Source: a virus. Taken from it: a stretch of 64,000 nucleotides of DNA. Location of the stretch: the IMG/VR virus record IMGVR_UViG_3300021958_000038; one strand, written 5' to 3'. Positions 45,184 through 54,597 of this stretch are shown one piece after another (positions within the stretch are counted from its first letter, which is position 1; each line of letters starts with the position of its first letter). The translations under genes were made by a program, and so were the position numbers. The notes beneath the pieces are model-generated. The model was given only the letters and a program-made list of their open reading frames with translations, made no database searches and was not told where the DNA came from.

Positions 45184-47073
45184 CTAATACTTATCACCAG
45201 TATATCTGCTAGACCACATTGTAAGAGAATATTTAGTTCCTTTTAATAATTCAGTACATTCATGACCATGAGTAACGGCCCCAGGGAATAATATACACCA
45301 ACCTGGTGGAATTTCTTTATTAGAAATACCTTGTCTAGGAAATATTAAATCGGCTCCTTCATAATCTTCATTTAATTTAACTGAACCAGTAACTAAACTT
45401 GCATCAGTATGCAATGGTAAATCTTTTTGTGTATCTACAGAATACTTCATAATAAAAGCATCTCTTAACCCATACATTTCCATAGGATGCCAATATCTTT
45501 CAATGATGGGATATAAATGTTTTTTCCAATGTGATTCTAATTCTTCAAATAGTCCTAATTCTTTCATTCTAATTTCTTGAGCTGGAAATTTATCACCTGG
45601 CATTGGCTCCCAAGTATTTAATTTATCACCCATTTCAATTAATCTTTCACATTGAGATTGGTTCATAAATTTAACTAATAACATATCTTTATCTAAAATC
45701 TGAAATTCGTTACCTGTGGGTAAATATAACTGTGGAAAACTTGAAGGTAATAGTTTAGCTTTTACATCTTGCAATGTTGAATAATTAAAATTATTATCGC
45801 CATTTGCATGATAAACTAATGGGCAACTATTAGTATTTGGATTATATAATTGATTATCAAGAGTAGTTATATCTTTATCAGCTGTTTGAAATAAATAACC
45901 TGTATTATCAATTATAATATCCCATTCGTTTTTAAAGAATTGTTCTTGGTAAAAAGCTTGGTCATCATCGTGTACATTTTCATCATAATGTGATATAATA
46001 TCTTGTAGCACACCAGCTCTTCCAATAAAGCCACCACTATTTAAATATGGAAAAGGTTGTGTCTCATCAAATCTATCAGCCCATTCTGCATTTGGCCAAC
46101 AACTATTTTCGCCTGAAAAGATTACATCAGCTTTCATTTCTAAAAATCTATTTACTATAGTTTCTTTATCATCACATATTAAAGAATCATATCCATCAGT
46201 AAAGAAAACTAAATCTGTTGGAGCTAGTTGATTAATAAATTCTTTTTGTAAATAAACTTTTTTACCACCATCGCGATGAGTCATAGGACTAAACCAATCA
46301 AAGTTATTACCTAGATTTTTTAAGTATATTCCATTATGAATAGCAGAATCATTTAAGTCTACGAGTTTATGTCTATCAGTACCAATTGTAGTAAAGTGTA
46401 TATTTGTAAAGTCGTGGAAAGCATTGTCTTGTCCGACTTCAATATCAGAAGCTACTTGACTTCTAAAATGTTGCCAACAAGGCTGTGGATTTTCTGTGCT
46501 GTCTGTATAACCTACTGATGACAATGTACCATTCATAATTAATTTTGGAATATGCTCATCTGAAGGTATTAAAGTTCTACCAAACTTTTCTATAAGTATA
46601 CTTGCAGTCTCAGGATACATTGCATAAGCTGTAAGGTTATATGGATAATAAGGTACTACTAAGTTATCATCAATTACTTTTTCCAACCCTGGTTCATTTT
46701 CATTATGCTGTAGATATACAATGTCATAACTGTCTAATAAAGTTTCTACTTCTTCTTCATTATATCTTTCTGGATTTCTAATCCAACAATCGTCTTCCAT
46801 AACAATAACTGGTTCATCACCTTCTGCTATAGCTTTCCAAGCCGCGTAATGACTTAATGTACAACCAACTTCACCTTTCTGCATTTTTCTATCTTTATAT
46901 GGGTCTCTCCATGTTGTATCGATATTCCACCCATGTCTGACTAAAGTTTGCATATTGATTTCTTCGCCATCAACACCTTCAATATACGTATAGTCTTTTA
47001 AATTATTTTTTTCAAATAATTCTTTTCTGTCAGTTCGTCTTTTTAAATTTATTACTAGTTTTTTCATTTCCAA
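45184..47073 (-). CDS. Three-domain collagen-modifying enzyme candidate: GT25 (COLGALT-like) + PLOD-type glycosyltransferase + PLOD-type 2OG-Fe(II) lysyl hydroxylase
   Basis: N: INLKRRTDR, GVDG, WRDPY...KGEVGCTLSHY, VMEDD. Middle: FFTDGYD, FSGENSCWP, YLNSGGFIG, DDQAFY, HANG. C: DAFIMKY, LHTDAS, LNEDYEG, GWCILFPG..THGHE, GTKYS. Confidence 0.85.
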   Translation of the reverse strand: MEMKKLVINLKRRTDRKELFEKNNLKDYTYIEGVDGEEINMQTLVRHGWNIDTTWRDPYKDRKMQKGEVGCTLSHYAAWKAIAEGDEPVIVMEDDCWIRNPERYNEEEVETLLDSYDIVYLQHNENEPGLEKVIDDNLVVPYYPYNLTAYAMYPETASILIEKFGRTLIPSDEHIPKLIMNGTLSSVGYTDSTENPQPCWQHFRSQVASDIEVGQDNAFHDFTNIHFTTIGTDRHKLVDLNDSAIHNGIYLKNLGNNFDWFSPMTHRDGGKKVYLQKEFINQLAPTDLVFFTDGYDSLICDDKETIVNRFLEMKADVIFSGENSCWPNAEWADRFDETQPFPYLNSGGFIGRAGVLQDIISHYDENVHDDDQAFYQEQFFKNEWDIIIDNTGYLFQTADKDITTLDNQLYNPNTNSCPLVYHANGDNNFNYSTLQDVKAKLLPSSFPQLYLPTGNEFQILDKDMLLVKFMNQSQCERLIEMGDKLNTWEPMPGDKFPAQEIRMKELGLFEELESHWKKHLYPIIERYWHPMEMYGLRDAFIMKYSVDTQKDLPLHTDASLVTGSVKLNEDYEGADLIFPRQGISNKEIPPGWCILFPGAVTHGHECTELLKGTKYSLTMWSSRYTGDKY

Positions 47074-51678: not shown

Positions 51679-54597
51679 CTATTCTTTCTCCTTTATTAAC
51701 ATGTTTACCTTATTATCTAATTCTTTAATTGCTTCAATAAATAGTGCTGCTAATTTTTCGTAATGTACTGTTAGATATTTATCATCGATTGGAGCTGGTA
51801 CAACGATTTCTGGCAATATTGATTGCACTTCTTGAGCCGATACACCAATTTCTTTTTTCTTATCATATCCCAATCTTTGAGCTTCTTCATTAGCCTCATA
51901 ATAGAAACCACTTAACTTATGAAGTTTTTCTAGAGCATTAGGAATATCACCGAATCTTGTTTTTAATCTTTCATCAGAATAATAAGCTGTGATATTGTTT
52001 GTTGCTCTAATTTCACCTGCCGTTCCACTTGCACCTGTATTAACACCTAAGCTATTAACCTGTGCGTTTGAACCGGTTGAGAATCCACCAGTTGGTCCTG
52101 TAGGCCCTGTAGGTCCTGTAGGTCCAGTTGGTCCAGTTCCACCTGTGCCACCTGGTTCACCTTTTTGGCCTTTAGCTCCAGTTCCACCAGTTGGACCAGT
52201 TGGACCTGTTGGTCCAGTTCCACCTGTTGAACCTTTAGCTCCAGTTGGTCCGGTAGGTCCTGTTGGTCCAGTTCCACCTGTTCCGCCTGGTTCACCTTTT
52301 TGGCCTTTAGCTCCAGTACCACCTGTTCCACCAGTATCGCCTTTCTGACCCTTGGCACCGTTACTACCATTTGTACCTGCTGGCCCTTGAGCCCCTGTTG
52401 GACCTTTAGCTCCAGTTGGCCCTGTTGGGCCTGTAGGTCCTATTCCACCTGTTGCACCAACTTCACCTTTTTGGCCTTTAGCTCCAGCTGGCCCTGTTGG
52501 GCCTGTAGGTCCTATTCCACCTGTTGCACCAACTTCACCTTTTTGGCCTTTAGCTCCAGTTCCACCAGTTGCGCCTGGTTCACCTTTTAATCCAGATGAT
52601 GGACCAATCCATTGACCTGAAGAGTTAATGACATCTGTACTACCAAGACGTAATGATTGAGCTATAGTAACCTTTCCGTCTTGTGCAATGGTCATTCTAG
52701 TAAGTGGACTTCCTGTAGCTACCGCTGTGCTTAAAGCTGCGCCAGTGCCTGGAGTAATAACTGCACTATATGTATCAAACAGAATATTATTACCAAGCAT
52801 TCTAATTCTATCCGAACCAGATGCACCTTCAACATCATTATATTTTGCTAGGATTAATTCCGACTTTTCGGTGCCTGAGTAAATATGTTCACCAATATAT
52901 GAATGGTTATAATTACCAGGTTGGTCACCAGTAGTTCCAGAGAATGCTATATAGTTTTGAGATGCATTTTCTGCTGATATTTTTATACCACCAAGATAGT
53001 GTGTAAAACTGTCAGAGTCTATAGCTTGATTAGTATAGGTTGCACCTTTGGCTCCAGTAGGTCCTGTTGCACCGACTTCACCTTTTTGGCCTTTGGCTCC
53101 AGTTCCACCTGTTCCACCAACTTCACCTTTTTGTCCTTTTGAACCAGCAGCTCCAGTTGCTCCAGTTTGTCCTTTTTGGCCTTTCTCTCCAACTTCGCCT
53201 TTAGCACCAGTTGGGCCTGTAGGTCCTATTCCACCTGTTGCACCAACTTCACCTTTTTGGCCTTTGGCTCCAGTAGGTCCTGTAGCTCCAACTTCGCCTT
53301 TTTGGCCTTTAGCTCCAGTTCCACCAGTTCCACCAACTTCACCCTTTTGGCCTTTAGTACCTTGTGGTCCTGTAGCTCCAACTTCGCCTTTTTGGCCTTT
53401 AGCTCCAGTACCACCTGTTCCACCAACTTCACCCTTTTGGCCTTTAGTACCTTGTGGTCCTTGAATTGAGCCACCACTTACCCATGCACTTCCGTCCCAG
53501 ATATGTAGTGAATCATCTGATTGTACAATATATGCATCACCTTTAGTATTTCCAGATGCTGGAAGGTTTGCTGTTCCAGCAACTTGTCCTTCCATTGTGA
53601 TACCAGTACCAGTTGAACCAGTTGGTCCTGTACTACCAGTTTCACCCTTTTGTCCTTTGTCTCCAGTTCCACCAGTTACACCTGTTGGTCCTTTAGCTCC
53701 AGTTGGTCCAGTAGCTCCTACCTCGCCTTTCTGTCCTTTAGTACCTTGAGGGCCTGTTGCACCAACTTCGCCTTTAGCTCCAGTAGGTCCTGTAGGTCCT
53801 GTAAGTCCTGTAGGTCCTGTAGGTCCTATTCCACCTGTAGGTCCAGTTCCACCTGTAGGTCCTGTTGTACCAATCTCTCCTTTTTGTCCCTTAGAACCTT
53901 GAGGTCCGGTTGGGCCAATATCGCCTTTAGCTCCTGTTGGACCTGTTGGTCCAGTAGCTCCTGTGTCGCCTTTAGCACCCGTAGGTCCTGTAGGCCCTGT
54001 TCCACCCGTAGGTCCAGTTCCACCTGTTGCACCAACTTCTCCTTTTTGTCCTTTACTACCGTTTGGTCCTATGCCACCTTGAATACCTTGTGGTCCGGTT
54101 GACCCCACTTCACCCTTTTGGCCTTTTGCACCGCCAGGTCCGGTTGGTCCTGTTCCACCTGTAGGTCCGGTTCCACCAGTATCGCCCTTAGCTCCAGTAG
54201 GTCCTGTAGGTCCTGTTAGGCCTTCATCGCCTGTAACTCCTACTTCACCTTTTTGGCCTTTACTGCCTTGAGGTCCAGTTCCACCAGTATCGCCTTTAGC
54301 ACCAGTAGGTCCAGTTCCACCAGTATCGCCTTTAGCACCAGTAGGTCCTGTTGACCCAGTTAGTCCAGTATCTCCAGTAGTACCTTTCTGTCCTACCTCG
54401 CCTTTTTGACCTTTAGTACCTTGAGGGCCTGTTGGGCCTGTTGCTCCAACTTCGCCTTTTTGACCTTTGGAACCTGTGGGACCAGGTTCGCCTTTTAATC
54501 CAGAACTAGAACCTTGCCACTCACCAGAGCTATTGATTACGTCTGTCGTGCCTACTGTGAGGCCATTTTTAATTTTAAAATTGCGGTTTGTTGCCAT
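51679..54597 (-). CDS. Collagen-like fibre protein 2 (972 aa) with C-terminal S74 intramolecular chaperone
   Basis: Three Gly-X-Y segments (approx. 54500-53605, 53464-53040, 52590-52085); YYSDERLK...[15 protein letters not shown]. Confidence 0.9.
52418..52559. repeat. 72-bp-period tandem duplication inside collagen gene 2
   Basis: 52418-52487 identical to 52490-52559; near-identical third partial copy at about 53213-53272. Confidence 0.88.
53281..53460. repeat. 90-bp tandem duplication inside collagen gene 2
   Basis: 53281-53370 vs 53371-53460 differ at 2 positions; encodes [30 protein letters not shown] x2. Confidence 0.9.

Follow-up and report, generated by a model that had tools for sequence, protein, structure and literature searches.

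To our knowledge, hydroxylysine (Hyl)-linked glycosylation of collagen has been treated as animal chemistry, with mimivirus the sole case outside animals. Animals make glucosyl-galactosyl-hydroxylysine (Glc-Gal-Hyl), and mimivirus L230, an 895-amino-acid (aa) bifunctional collagen lysyl hydroxylase/hydroxylysyl glucosyltransferase with an N-terminal GLT25D1-like glycosyltransferase (GT) and a C-terminal lysyl hydroxylase (LH), adds Glc to Hyl, as summarized from Luther et al. (2011) in PMC9614988. Both L230 and L593, the mimivirus collagen prolyl hydroxylase, have been reported active in E. coli (PMC9546862). Here we analyze a window of 64,000 nucleotides (nt) from IMG/VR record IMGVR_UViG_3300021958_000038, part of an 88.8-kb viral contig estimated to be 49% complete, in which two collagen-like fibre genes are followed by genes for a small oxygenase and a three-domain fusion enzyme. 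We consider it probable that this module serves virion-fibre maturation in a T4-like marine myovirus, with predicted hydroxylation and glycosylation of Y-position Lys in the phage's own fibres, on the strength of its domain homologies and conserved catalytic residues, of its genomic coupling to collagen fibres, and of a fibre composition that resembles that of a substrate.

For bacterial collagen-like proteins, hydroxylation was predicted by Iyer et al. (2010), but by other dioxygenase families combined with sulfotransferases. According to a 2022 review, prokaryotes mostly neither hydroxylate nor glycosylate collagens, and phage collagens are tiny (PMC8968730). Viral prolyl 4-hydroxylase (P4H) genes from marine metagenomes have been termed "cryptic" (PMC9301287), and bacteria reportedly cannot yet be used to make glycosylated recombinant collagen (PMC9546862). 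A full-text literature search found no paper describing PLOD/COLGALT-type enzymes in bacteriophages. The sequence of the locus suggests a known chemistry, the collagen lysine modification of L230 and of PLOD/COLGALT, in a new biological setting, phages.

The fusion enzyme and its known relatives

The four genes lie on the minus strand in the order fibre 1, fibre 2, 195-aa oxygenase, fusion enzyme, and the two fibre genes abut. Their features are as follows.

51679..54597, minus strand: collagen-like fibre 1 (P0004, 972 aa), with Gly-X-Y runs and Pfam Collagen and S74 matches
53602-54501, 53038-53460 and 52081-52593, minus strand: Gly-X-Y segments of fibre 1 (aa 33-332, 380-520 and 669-839)
~51802-51978, minus strand: S74 chaperone domain of fibre 1 (PF13884, aa 874-932)
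47668..51678, minus strand: collagen-like fibre 2 (P0003, 1336 aa), with Gly-X-Y runs and Pfam Collagen and S74 matches
50245-51324, 49528-50103 and 48061-48735, minus strand: Gly-X-Y segments of fibre 2 (aa 119-478, 526-717 and 982-1206)
~47782-47964, minus strand: S74 chaperone domain of fibre 2 (PF13884, aa 1239-1299)
47064..47651, minus strand: stand-alone 2-oxoglutarate (2OG)/Fe(II) oxygenase (P0002, 195 aa; PF13640, 2OG-FeII_Oxy_3)
45184-47073 (open frame), minus strand: fusion enzyme (P0001), with Glyco_transf_25 at aa 4-125, GT_PLOD at aa 227-434 and an LH-type C terminus
46459..47067, minus strand: domain 1, GT25 glycosyltransferase, COLGALT1-catalytic-like (PF01755, E 2e-18; matches to COLGALT1 and R655)
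45754..46410, minus strand: domain 2, PLOD/LH3-type glycosyltransferase (PF25342, E 8e-33, above cut-off; aligned with LH3 aa 44-238)
45184..45702 (including stop), minus strand: domain 3, lysyl-hydroxylase-type 2OG/Fe(II) oxygenase (aligned with LH3 aa 583-710 and with L230)

The original prediction had placed here two adjacent fibre genes encoding 1336 and 972 aa with three long Gly-X-Y segments each, followed by a 2OG-Fe(II) oxygenase and a 629-aa GT25/PLOD-GT/PLOD-hydroxylase fusion. All four open reading frames (ORFs) were found at the positions it gave, and the gene order and domains hold. The length of the fusion needs correction: its start is most likely the ATG at 47067, which would give 627 aa. 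The start codon proposed here shares bases with the stop codon of the oxygenase (ATGA), and across the family M3 hardly varies.

The closest known architecture is that of mimivirus L230, not that of separate PLOD and COLGALT proteins. Like the phage enzyme, L230 (6AX6) is a virus-encoded single chain with a GT25 EDD motif and a C-terminal LH domain carrying HxD...H; it acts on mimivirus's own Gly-X-Lys collagens, and the phage enzyme is encoded beside Gly-X-Lys fibres, its presumed substrates. The phage enzyme differs in being ~270 aa shorter, without the region between the PLOD-type GT and LH domains, in having K614 where L230 has Arg887, and in its bacterial cytoplasmic setting, with its gene directly downstream of those for the presumed substrates. 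Unnamed metagenomic proteins of ~900 aa have the same order (GT25, GT_PLOD, LH) plus an extra middle region and fit L230 in length and order, the layout of L230 being known here from its published description. When the phage enzyme was compared with human LH3/PLOD3 and COLGALT1 (6FXK, 9EVJ, and the complex 8ZGC), all three catalytic modules were present, with the DxxD, poly-Asp, H-x-N, and Fe triad of LH3 and the EDD of COLGALT1 kept, but in one 627-aa chain as opposed to a complex of two large proteins and at identities of only 15 to 26%. Mimivirus R699, a Gal-Hyl glucosyltransferase, resembles domain 2, and R655, a putative Hyl galactosyltransferase, resembles domain 1; L593 accompanies the mimivirus lysine enzymes as the P4H-like small oxygenase gene does in the phage. 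R699, R655, and L593 are separate, dispersed genes, whereas the phage has two modules in one protein and, unlike L593, a P4H-like gene translationally coupled to the fusion.

In a PDB sequence search with phmmer, all matches to the fusion at E < 0.001 were collagen hydroxylysine-pathway enzymes: LH3 (E 5e-15 for the GT domain and 5e-7 for the LH domain), mimivirus R699 (3e-16), R655 (1e-9), the L230 LH domain (3e-6), and COLGALT1 over its catalytic domain only (1e-13). An AlphaFold (AF2) model built from a 32-sequence alignment of relatives had a mean predicted local distance difference test (pLDDT) score of 90 and a predicted template modeling score of 0.85. The top 31 Foldseek matches of this model in the PDB were LH3, COLGALT1, and R699/R655/L230-type collagen Hyl-pathway enzymes; bacterial P4Hs and lipooligosaccharide (LOS) GT25 galactosyltransferases came after them, at E ~1e-7. 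Domain 2 matched the isolated LH3 GT domain (6wfv) with a template modeling (TM) score of 0.84 and a root mean square deviation (rmsd) of 2.0 Å, and R699 by fold at 5e-16, while domain 3 matched the L230 LH domain with a TM score of 0.75 and an rmsd of 1.6-2.3 Å. Kinship with PLOD3/LH3, COLGALT1, L230, R699, and R655, as originally predicted, was thus borne out by both searches, and neither placed the domains with LOS or lipopolysaccharide (LPS) enzymes or with DNA-acting enzymes.

Residue conservation was examined in 32 relatives of the fusion at 36-90% identity. Domain 1 has a catalytic GT-A domain with the E-D-D metal/uridine diphosphate (UDP)-sugar motif of GT25 enzymes (E93-D94-D95, invariant), and its alignment to the COLGALT1 catalytic domain keeps RDPY..R..KGE.GC.LSH as well as EDD. 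Domain 2 shows the GT-A fold, DxxD Mn site, distal His, and poly-Asp/UDP-sugar loop of PLOD-type GTs: D293, D296, D370-D371-Q372, and H422, the residues of the LH3-type Mn/UDP-sugar site, are invariant and N424 is nearly so, and the alignment to LH3 reads FTDGYD/FVDSYD, DDDQ/DDDQ, and HANG/HGNG. Domain 3 carries a 2-His-1-Asp Fe(II) triad on a double-stranded beta-helix; its residues H555, D557, and H604 are invariant and align to the LH3 triad (H667/D669/H719; H825/D827/H877 in L230), and K614 is likewise invariant. Collagen LHs are known as tail-to-tail homodimers stabilized by a second Fe(II) site. Together, the sequence matches, the fold matches, and the conserved residues argue for a compact chain of predicted GT25, LH3-type GT, and LH domains. 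No endoplasmic reticulum signal or retention features were noticed in the fusion, and no search was aimed at them.

Public annotations of the fusion gene read "hypothetical protein," "2OG-Fe(II) oxygenase," or, from the Joint Genome Institute (JGI), [quoted passage not shown] Some metagenomic relatives are larger: P0133 (875 aa) has an added N-terminal TylF-type methyltransferase, P0126 (942 aa) a duplicated GT25, and P0211 (1781 aa) added GT11 and GT10 fucosyltransferase-like domains. These extra domains suggest more elaborate glycans in some lineages.

Fibre composition, genomic coupling, and the small oxygenase

Both fibres end in a Peptidase_S74 intramolecular chaperone domain, as expected of trimeric phage fibres with such a chaperone, and both have many matches to PHROG tail-fibre families. 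Their Pfam Collagen matches have E values of 1e-62 and 1e-82. The Gly-X-Y runs are uninterrupted over 100, 47, and 57 triplets in fibre 1 and over 120, 64, and 75 in fibre 2; runs of 47 to 120 triplets cannot have arisen by chance. Among the 204 triplets of fibre 1, Lys occupies 56 Y positions and no X position, and Pro occupies 55 X and 4 Y positions; the corresponding counts for the 259 triplets of fibre 2 are 61 and 0 for Lys in Y and X, and 67 and 3 for Pro in X and Y. All 117 Lys residues of the collagen segments therefore stand in X-Lys-Gly, in which the Y position is the site of lysyl hydroxylases. Two further elements are common to both fibres, a motif I-N-S-S-G-E/Q-W-x-G-x-x-x-G-L-K-G-E-P-G preceding collagen segments 1 and 3 (fibre 1 aa 17-40 and 650-672; fibre 2 aa 103-125 and 960-985) and a globular insert of ~47 aa between segments 1 and 2; both may be registration or nucleation elements.

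The same Lys placement recurs in other fusion-associated fibres. In 44 distinct fusion-associated fibre ORFs, comprising 7,426 triplets, 2,098 Lys residues are in Y (28%) and none in X, and there is a single Arg; outside the collagen segments, these proteins have 587 Arg and 1,025 Lys. The fibres are otherwise diverse, being Pro-free or Pro-rich, 25 to 511 triplets long, and different in their non-collagen domains, yet all have Lys only in Y. Y-Lys is ≥14.6% in every one, while Pro ranges from 0 to 49% and Thr from 0 to 62%. Control viral collagens, a random sample found with the DNA pattern (GGN NNN NNN)x16, use Arg and X-position Lys freely. Their median Y-Lys is 0.3%, and that of fibres associated with the fusion is 24.9% (Mann-Whitney P = 4e-14).

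We rejected Y-Lys as an exclusive signature of the fusion, as 17 of 76 control collagen loci reach ≥10% Y-Lys. The most Lys-rich control (L237, 57% Y-Lys) proved to be a hidden positive with a different GT25 plus LH-like enzyme on the same contig. This enzyme is a 754-aa protein with GT4-like (weak), GT25, and LH-like domains, followed by a sulfotransferase; its last 666 aa lie at 1-2001 of L374 and the sulfotransferase at 2001-2588. Its GT25 and LH-like domains are 25-27% identical to those of the window fusion, and it represents a second architecture built on what looks like the same principle.

To survey the genomic context of the fusion, we scanned IMG/VR with an alignment query, a single-protein query having returned only 4 loci. 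At least 516 contigs encode a relative of the fusion, and 80 loci were fetched. Upstream sequence of at least 7 kb was available for 33 loci, and in 32 of them a co-oriented Gly-X-Y ORF lay upstream of the fusion, at a median gap of 1.4 kb; in the sole exception (L062), the collagen ORFs are ~15 kb upstream, beyond a radical S-adenosylmethionine (SAM) island. The downstream flanks of the fusion loci, taken as a control, had a collagen ORF in 1 of 35 cases. Loci found through gp14 that lacked the fusion and had at least 7 kb upstream had none (0/16; Fisher P = 5e-12, although the loci are phylogenetically related and the P values overstate their independence). In the gp14 set as a whole, the fusion was present at 1 of 80 loci, and that locus also carried a collagen gene.

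The association extends beyond T4-like phages, which account for 32 of the 80 fusion loci; others include phages of ~53 kb with different structural genes. tblastn matched the fusion in cyanophages S-CAM9, S-PRM1, and S-8S53/55/56, in a single-cell viral contig, and in Roseobacter phage CRP-6, and in S-CAM9, S-PRM1, and CRP-6 a fibre gene with a run of 59, 59, and 99 Gly-X-Y triplets, respectively, precedes it by a few genes. Among bacterial and archaeal assemblies, all 5 adequately long multi-domain loci had a collagen ORF upstream; 2 are isolate genomes (Streptomyces kronopolitis and Kaistia terrae) and 3 are contigs of metagenome-assembled genomes, possibly binned phage DNA. The match covers fusion aa 49-627 in S. 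kronopolitis (L298) and aa 224-627 in K. terrae (L299), and in both the upstream collagen-like ORF is small, Pro-rich in Y, and poor in Lys. The module is widespread in marine phages and present in a few bacterial genomes, and is not special to this phage. The survey agrees with the originally predicted co-occurrence: the fusion was almost never without a co-oriented collagen fibre gene upstream, and occurrence independent of collagen genes was seen neither in IMG/VR, nor in the gp14 controls, nor at the bacterial multi-domain loci.

The stand-alone oxygenase has the fold (a double-stranded beta-helix), the HxD...H, and the C-terminal Arg of P4H-type enzymes, and H110, D112, H172, and R182 are invariant in 21 relatives. 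The best PDB folds for its AF2 model (pLDDT 87) were PBCV-1 vCPH, Pseudomonas P4H, and PHD2 (TM score ~0.7, E 5e-11), and the PDB matches at the sequence level were PiuC/PKHD-type hydroxylases. PBCV-1 vCPH and the bacterial P4Hs (Bacillus anthracis, Pseudomonas) have the fold and HxD...H...R in common with it, but identity is <20% and the presumed Pro targets are in X (Gly-Pro-Thr), not Y. The gene was found in 17 of 25 de-duplicated fusion loci with Pro-containing fibres, versus 1 of 13 with Pro-free fibres (Fisher P = 5e-4, the loci not being independent), and in the random viral collagen sample it occurred without the fusion at three loci (L227, L251, and L252) beside Pro-rich, Lys-free collagens. 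Because its presence tracks Pro-containing fibres and it also occurs beside such Lys-free collagens, we take proline as its putative target and regard it as an accessory part of the module and a candidate fibre prolyl hydroxylase. With Pro almost always in X, it would not be a classical X-Pro-Gly 4-hydroxylase. In one subclade, represented by L062, an island of ~340-385-aa genes with three or four weak radical-SAM matches (L062 3886-9391 and 426-3927) is inserted between the collagen genes and the oxygenase/fusion genes, and a 2OG-FeII_Oxy_5-type oxygenase replaces the P4H-like one.

Proposed fibre maturation and its alternatives

Animal- or giant-virus-like modification of its own collagen by a phage, the core of the original prediction, is supported computationally by homology, catalytic residues, genomic context, and the confinement of fibre Lys to X-Lys-Gly. 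In the proposed route, the two collagen-like fibre proteins would be made late in infection, and the three-domain enzyme would act on X-Lys-Gly of nascent unfolded chains, before the triple helix zips up. Domain 3 would hydroxylate Y-position Lys to hydroxylysine, the GT25 domain would put a first hexose on the new hydroxyl, and the LH3-type GT domain would put on a second. The expected product is hexosyl- or dihexosyl-Hyl, either animal-like Glc-Gal-Hyl or L230-like Glc-Hyl being possible; by analogy with L230, the first sugar could be Glc rather than Gal. The small oxygenase, coupled to the fusion, would most likely hydroxylate Pro in Gly-Pro-Thr triplets. The chains would then trimerize with the help of the S74 chaperone, and the phage might gain a fibre that is more stable, hydrated, protease-shielded, or differently recognized. 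Such a route appears feasible in a bacterial cytoplasm, since L230 and L593 have been reported active in E. coli (PMC9546862). For the combined and wider claim we lean only modestly in favour: that phages and a few bacteria run a full cytoplasmic collagen maturation (Pro hydroxylation, and Lys to Hyl to hexosyl-Hyl to dihexosyl-Hyl, the lysine steps by one 627-aa enzyme), that the fibres co-evolved with it, and that it is common in the ocean.

Several observations weigh against modification of fibre Lys by this enzyme. The 2OG C5-carboxylate ligand of domain 3 is K614 (GTKYSL), versus the Arg of collagen LHs seen in LH3 (R729, GTRYIM) and L230 (R887). Residue 614 is still basic, and because other 2OG oxygenases use Lys as this ligand, K614 is a variant and not a loss. 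The phage enzyme lacks the accessory domain of LH3 and L230 as well as the first, non-catalytic COLGALT1 domain: only the catalytic half of COLGALT1 (chain ~304-502) is matched, and the phage domain starts at residue 3. Lys in Y is generally favoured in collagens, and the ~29% of Y-Lys that falls in K-G-E/D pairs could serve helix stability alone. We rejected such salt bridges as the sole cause of the Y-Lys content, as ~29% of Y-Lys precedes Gly-Glu or Gly-Asp and 57% precedes Gly-Gln; salt-bridge stabilization is thus not the whole reason for it. Three control contigs estimated to be 85-95% complete have 17-23% Y-Lys without a GT_PLOD gene, so the Y-Lys signature is not exclusive, and an LH-domain search of two of these contigs found no LH-like gene. 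A further 74 loci from the genome scan (L300-L373) match the LH-like domain only, at 32-47% identity to fusion residues ~455-620, with no collagen ORF within 10 kb. They are nearly all from Actinomycetota, mostly Acidimicrobiia/Ilumatobacteraceae, many on large bacterial contigs, and they indicate that the LH-like oxygenase family is not collagen-tied everywhere. The relatedness of the loci behind our P values also belongs on this side.

The enzymes might instead remodel the host surface or another non-fibre target, by altering LPS/LOS for superinfection exclusion or hydroxylating host proteins, and lie beside the fibres because a hypervariable tail-fibre region collects accessory genes. GT25 is named after LPS/LOS galactosyltransferases, JGI labels relatives of the fusion as LPS biosynthesis GR25 proteins, and many cyanophage 2OG oxygenases have unassigned targets. 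Pelagimyophage GTs of this genomic region were, moreover, read as host-LPS O-chain modifiers (PMC7029224), which also counts against fibre modification. The GT25 domain of the fusion is, however, far nearer COLGALT1 than bacterial LOS GT25 enzymes in sequence (E 0.52 for the latter) and in fold (3e-7, versus 1e-13 for COLGALT1), and it invariably shares its chain with an LH3-type GT and a lysyl-hydroxylase-type domain. Collagen genes precede the fusion in 32 of 33 loci, follow it in 1 of 35, and are absent from the corresponding region of 16 related phages without the fusion; the link holds across unrelated phage backbones and in bacterial genomes. We therefore regard a host-surface or other non-fibre target as unlikely.

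It is quite improbable, in our estimate, that the fibres are the substrate but carry their sugars on Y-position Thr (Gly-X-Thr), with a separate role for the oxygenase domain. Thr glycosylation has precedents in Bacillus BclA and Riftia cuticle collagen. Thr occupies ~50% of Y positions in the window fibres and 39% across the fusion-associated fibres, and the collagen-like repeats of BclA are glycosylated (PMC8968730). Both GT domains are nonetheless nearest to enzymes with Hyl and Gal-Hyl as acceptors, and some partner fibres are nearly Thr-free with 77-83% Y-Lys (L017 has 1 Thr and 54 Lys in 70 triplets; L060 has 0 Thr). Across the fusion-associated fibres it is Y-Lys that never falls below its minimum, while Thr drops to 0, and Thr glycosylation would leave the invariant fusion to a lysyl-hydroxylase-type domain unexplained.

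Finally, it is barely credible that the fusion protein is an inactive or purely structural remnant, or that the adjacency reflects shared descent of one mobile fibre cassette with no functional link: many of the 80 loci are related and co-occurrence may be partly inherited, but none of the three domains shows a change in its catalytic residues even in relatives at 36% identity, the neighbouring fibres are very different yet all have Lys only in Y and no Arg, and near-identical fusion and fibre fragments occur in three marine metatranscriptome libraries, where DNA carry-over is possible.

Phage setting and implications

The minus strand carries nearly all genes of the window. By its Pfam and PHROG matches the phage is a T4-like myovirus, with gp23 capsid, gp20 portal, gp18 sheath, gp17 terminase, and neck proteins gp13/gp14/gp15, and with DNA polymerase, UvsX, UvsW, and gp46/47 as further T4-like markers. 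By major capsid protein, the nearest cultured relatives are Pelagibacter phage HTVC008M and Methylophilales phage Melnitz, at ~63% identity; megablast of the enzyme region against GenBank phages gave no match, and the phage is without a close cultured relative. Its DNA was found in estuary, marine, and viral-fraction metagenomes. GC content is ~33% in general and 43-48% across the collagen genes. The collagen/enzyme module lies directly upstream of gp13, in the place of the T4 short fibre and whisker genes (gp12, wac).

Two promoter-like motifs accompany the module.

54634..54641, minus strand: TATAAATA, T4-type late-promoter-like motif, 37 nt upstream of the fibre 1 gene
47657..47664, minus strand: TATAAATA motif, between the fibre 2 stop and the oxygenase start

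Late promoters had been predicted at both positions, and the motif is indeed present at each. It has 17 copies in the window (8493 to 59985), all on the coding (minus) strand (17:0), and the copies checked (45148, 45160, 47657, 54634, and 57701) sit just upstream of gene starts. The total count was set aside as evidence, being not significant alone (17 versus 11 ± 3.4 expected; 7 of 100 shuffles reach 17). With the count at chance level, only the strand bias and the positions are informative, and these fit T4-type late promoters. Scans of the locus for sigma-70 promoters and terminators gave counts at chance level. Contigs from three marine metatranscriptome libraries are near-identical (0-4 differences) to stretches of the fusion, neck, and fibre genes, which is compatible with transcription and no proof of it, as DNA carry-over is possible and transcript ends are not shown.

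Elsewhere in the structural block, between the terminase and tail sheath genes (39226-40683, minus strand), a 485-aa protein combines a RimK-type ATP-grasp domain with a weak resemblance, below the threshold, to an ATP-dependent Zn-protease domain. This protein could be a further protein-modifying enzyme, a peptide or poly-Glu ligase. The window also encodes a C5-cytosine DNA methylase (3616-4842, minus strand) and a MoxR/CbbQ-type AAA ATPase (21826-22947, minus strand).

The IMG/VR contigs with a fusion relative, together with the cultivable phages S-CAM9, S-PRM1, and CRP-6, offer a concrete and testable pair of substrate and enzyme. If the proposed reading is true, it would explain one group among the many unassigned phage annotations "2OG-Fe(II) oxygenase" and "GT25/LPS," those on this fusion and the adjoining small oxygenase, and a single compact gene that is expected to be expressible in bacteria might yield glycosylated recombinant collagen. 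It would also add a new type of virion-protein modification in phages and shed light on where the PLOD/COLGALT system came from: neither animals nor giant viruses would then have invented the glycosylation of collagen lysines, and the enzymes of phages or bacteria could stand near its evolutionary source.

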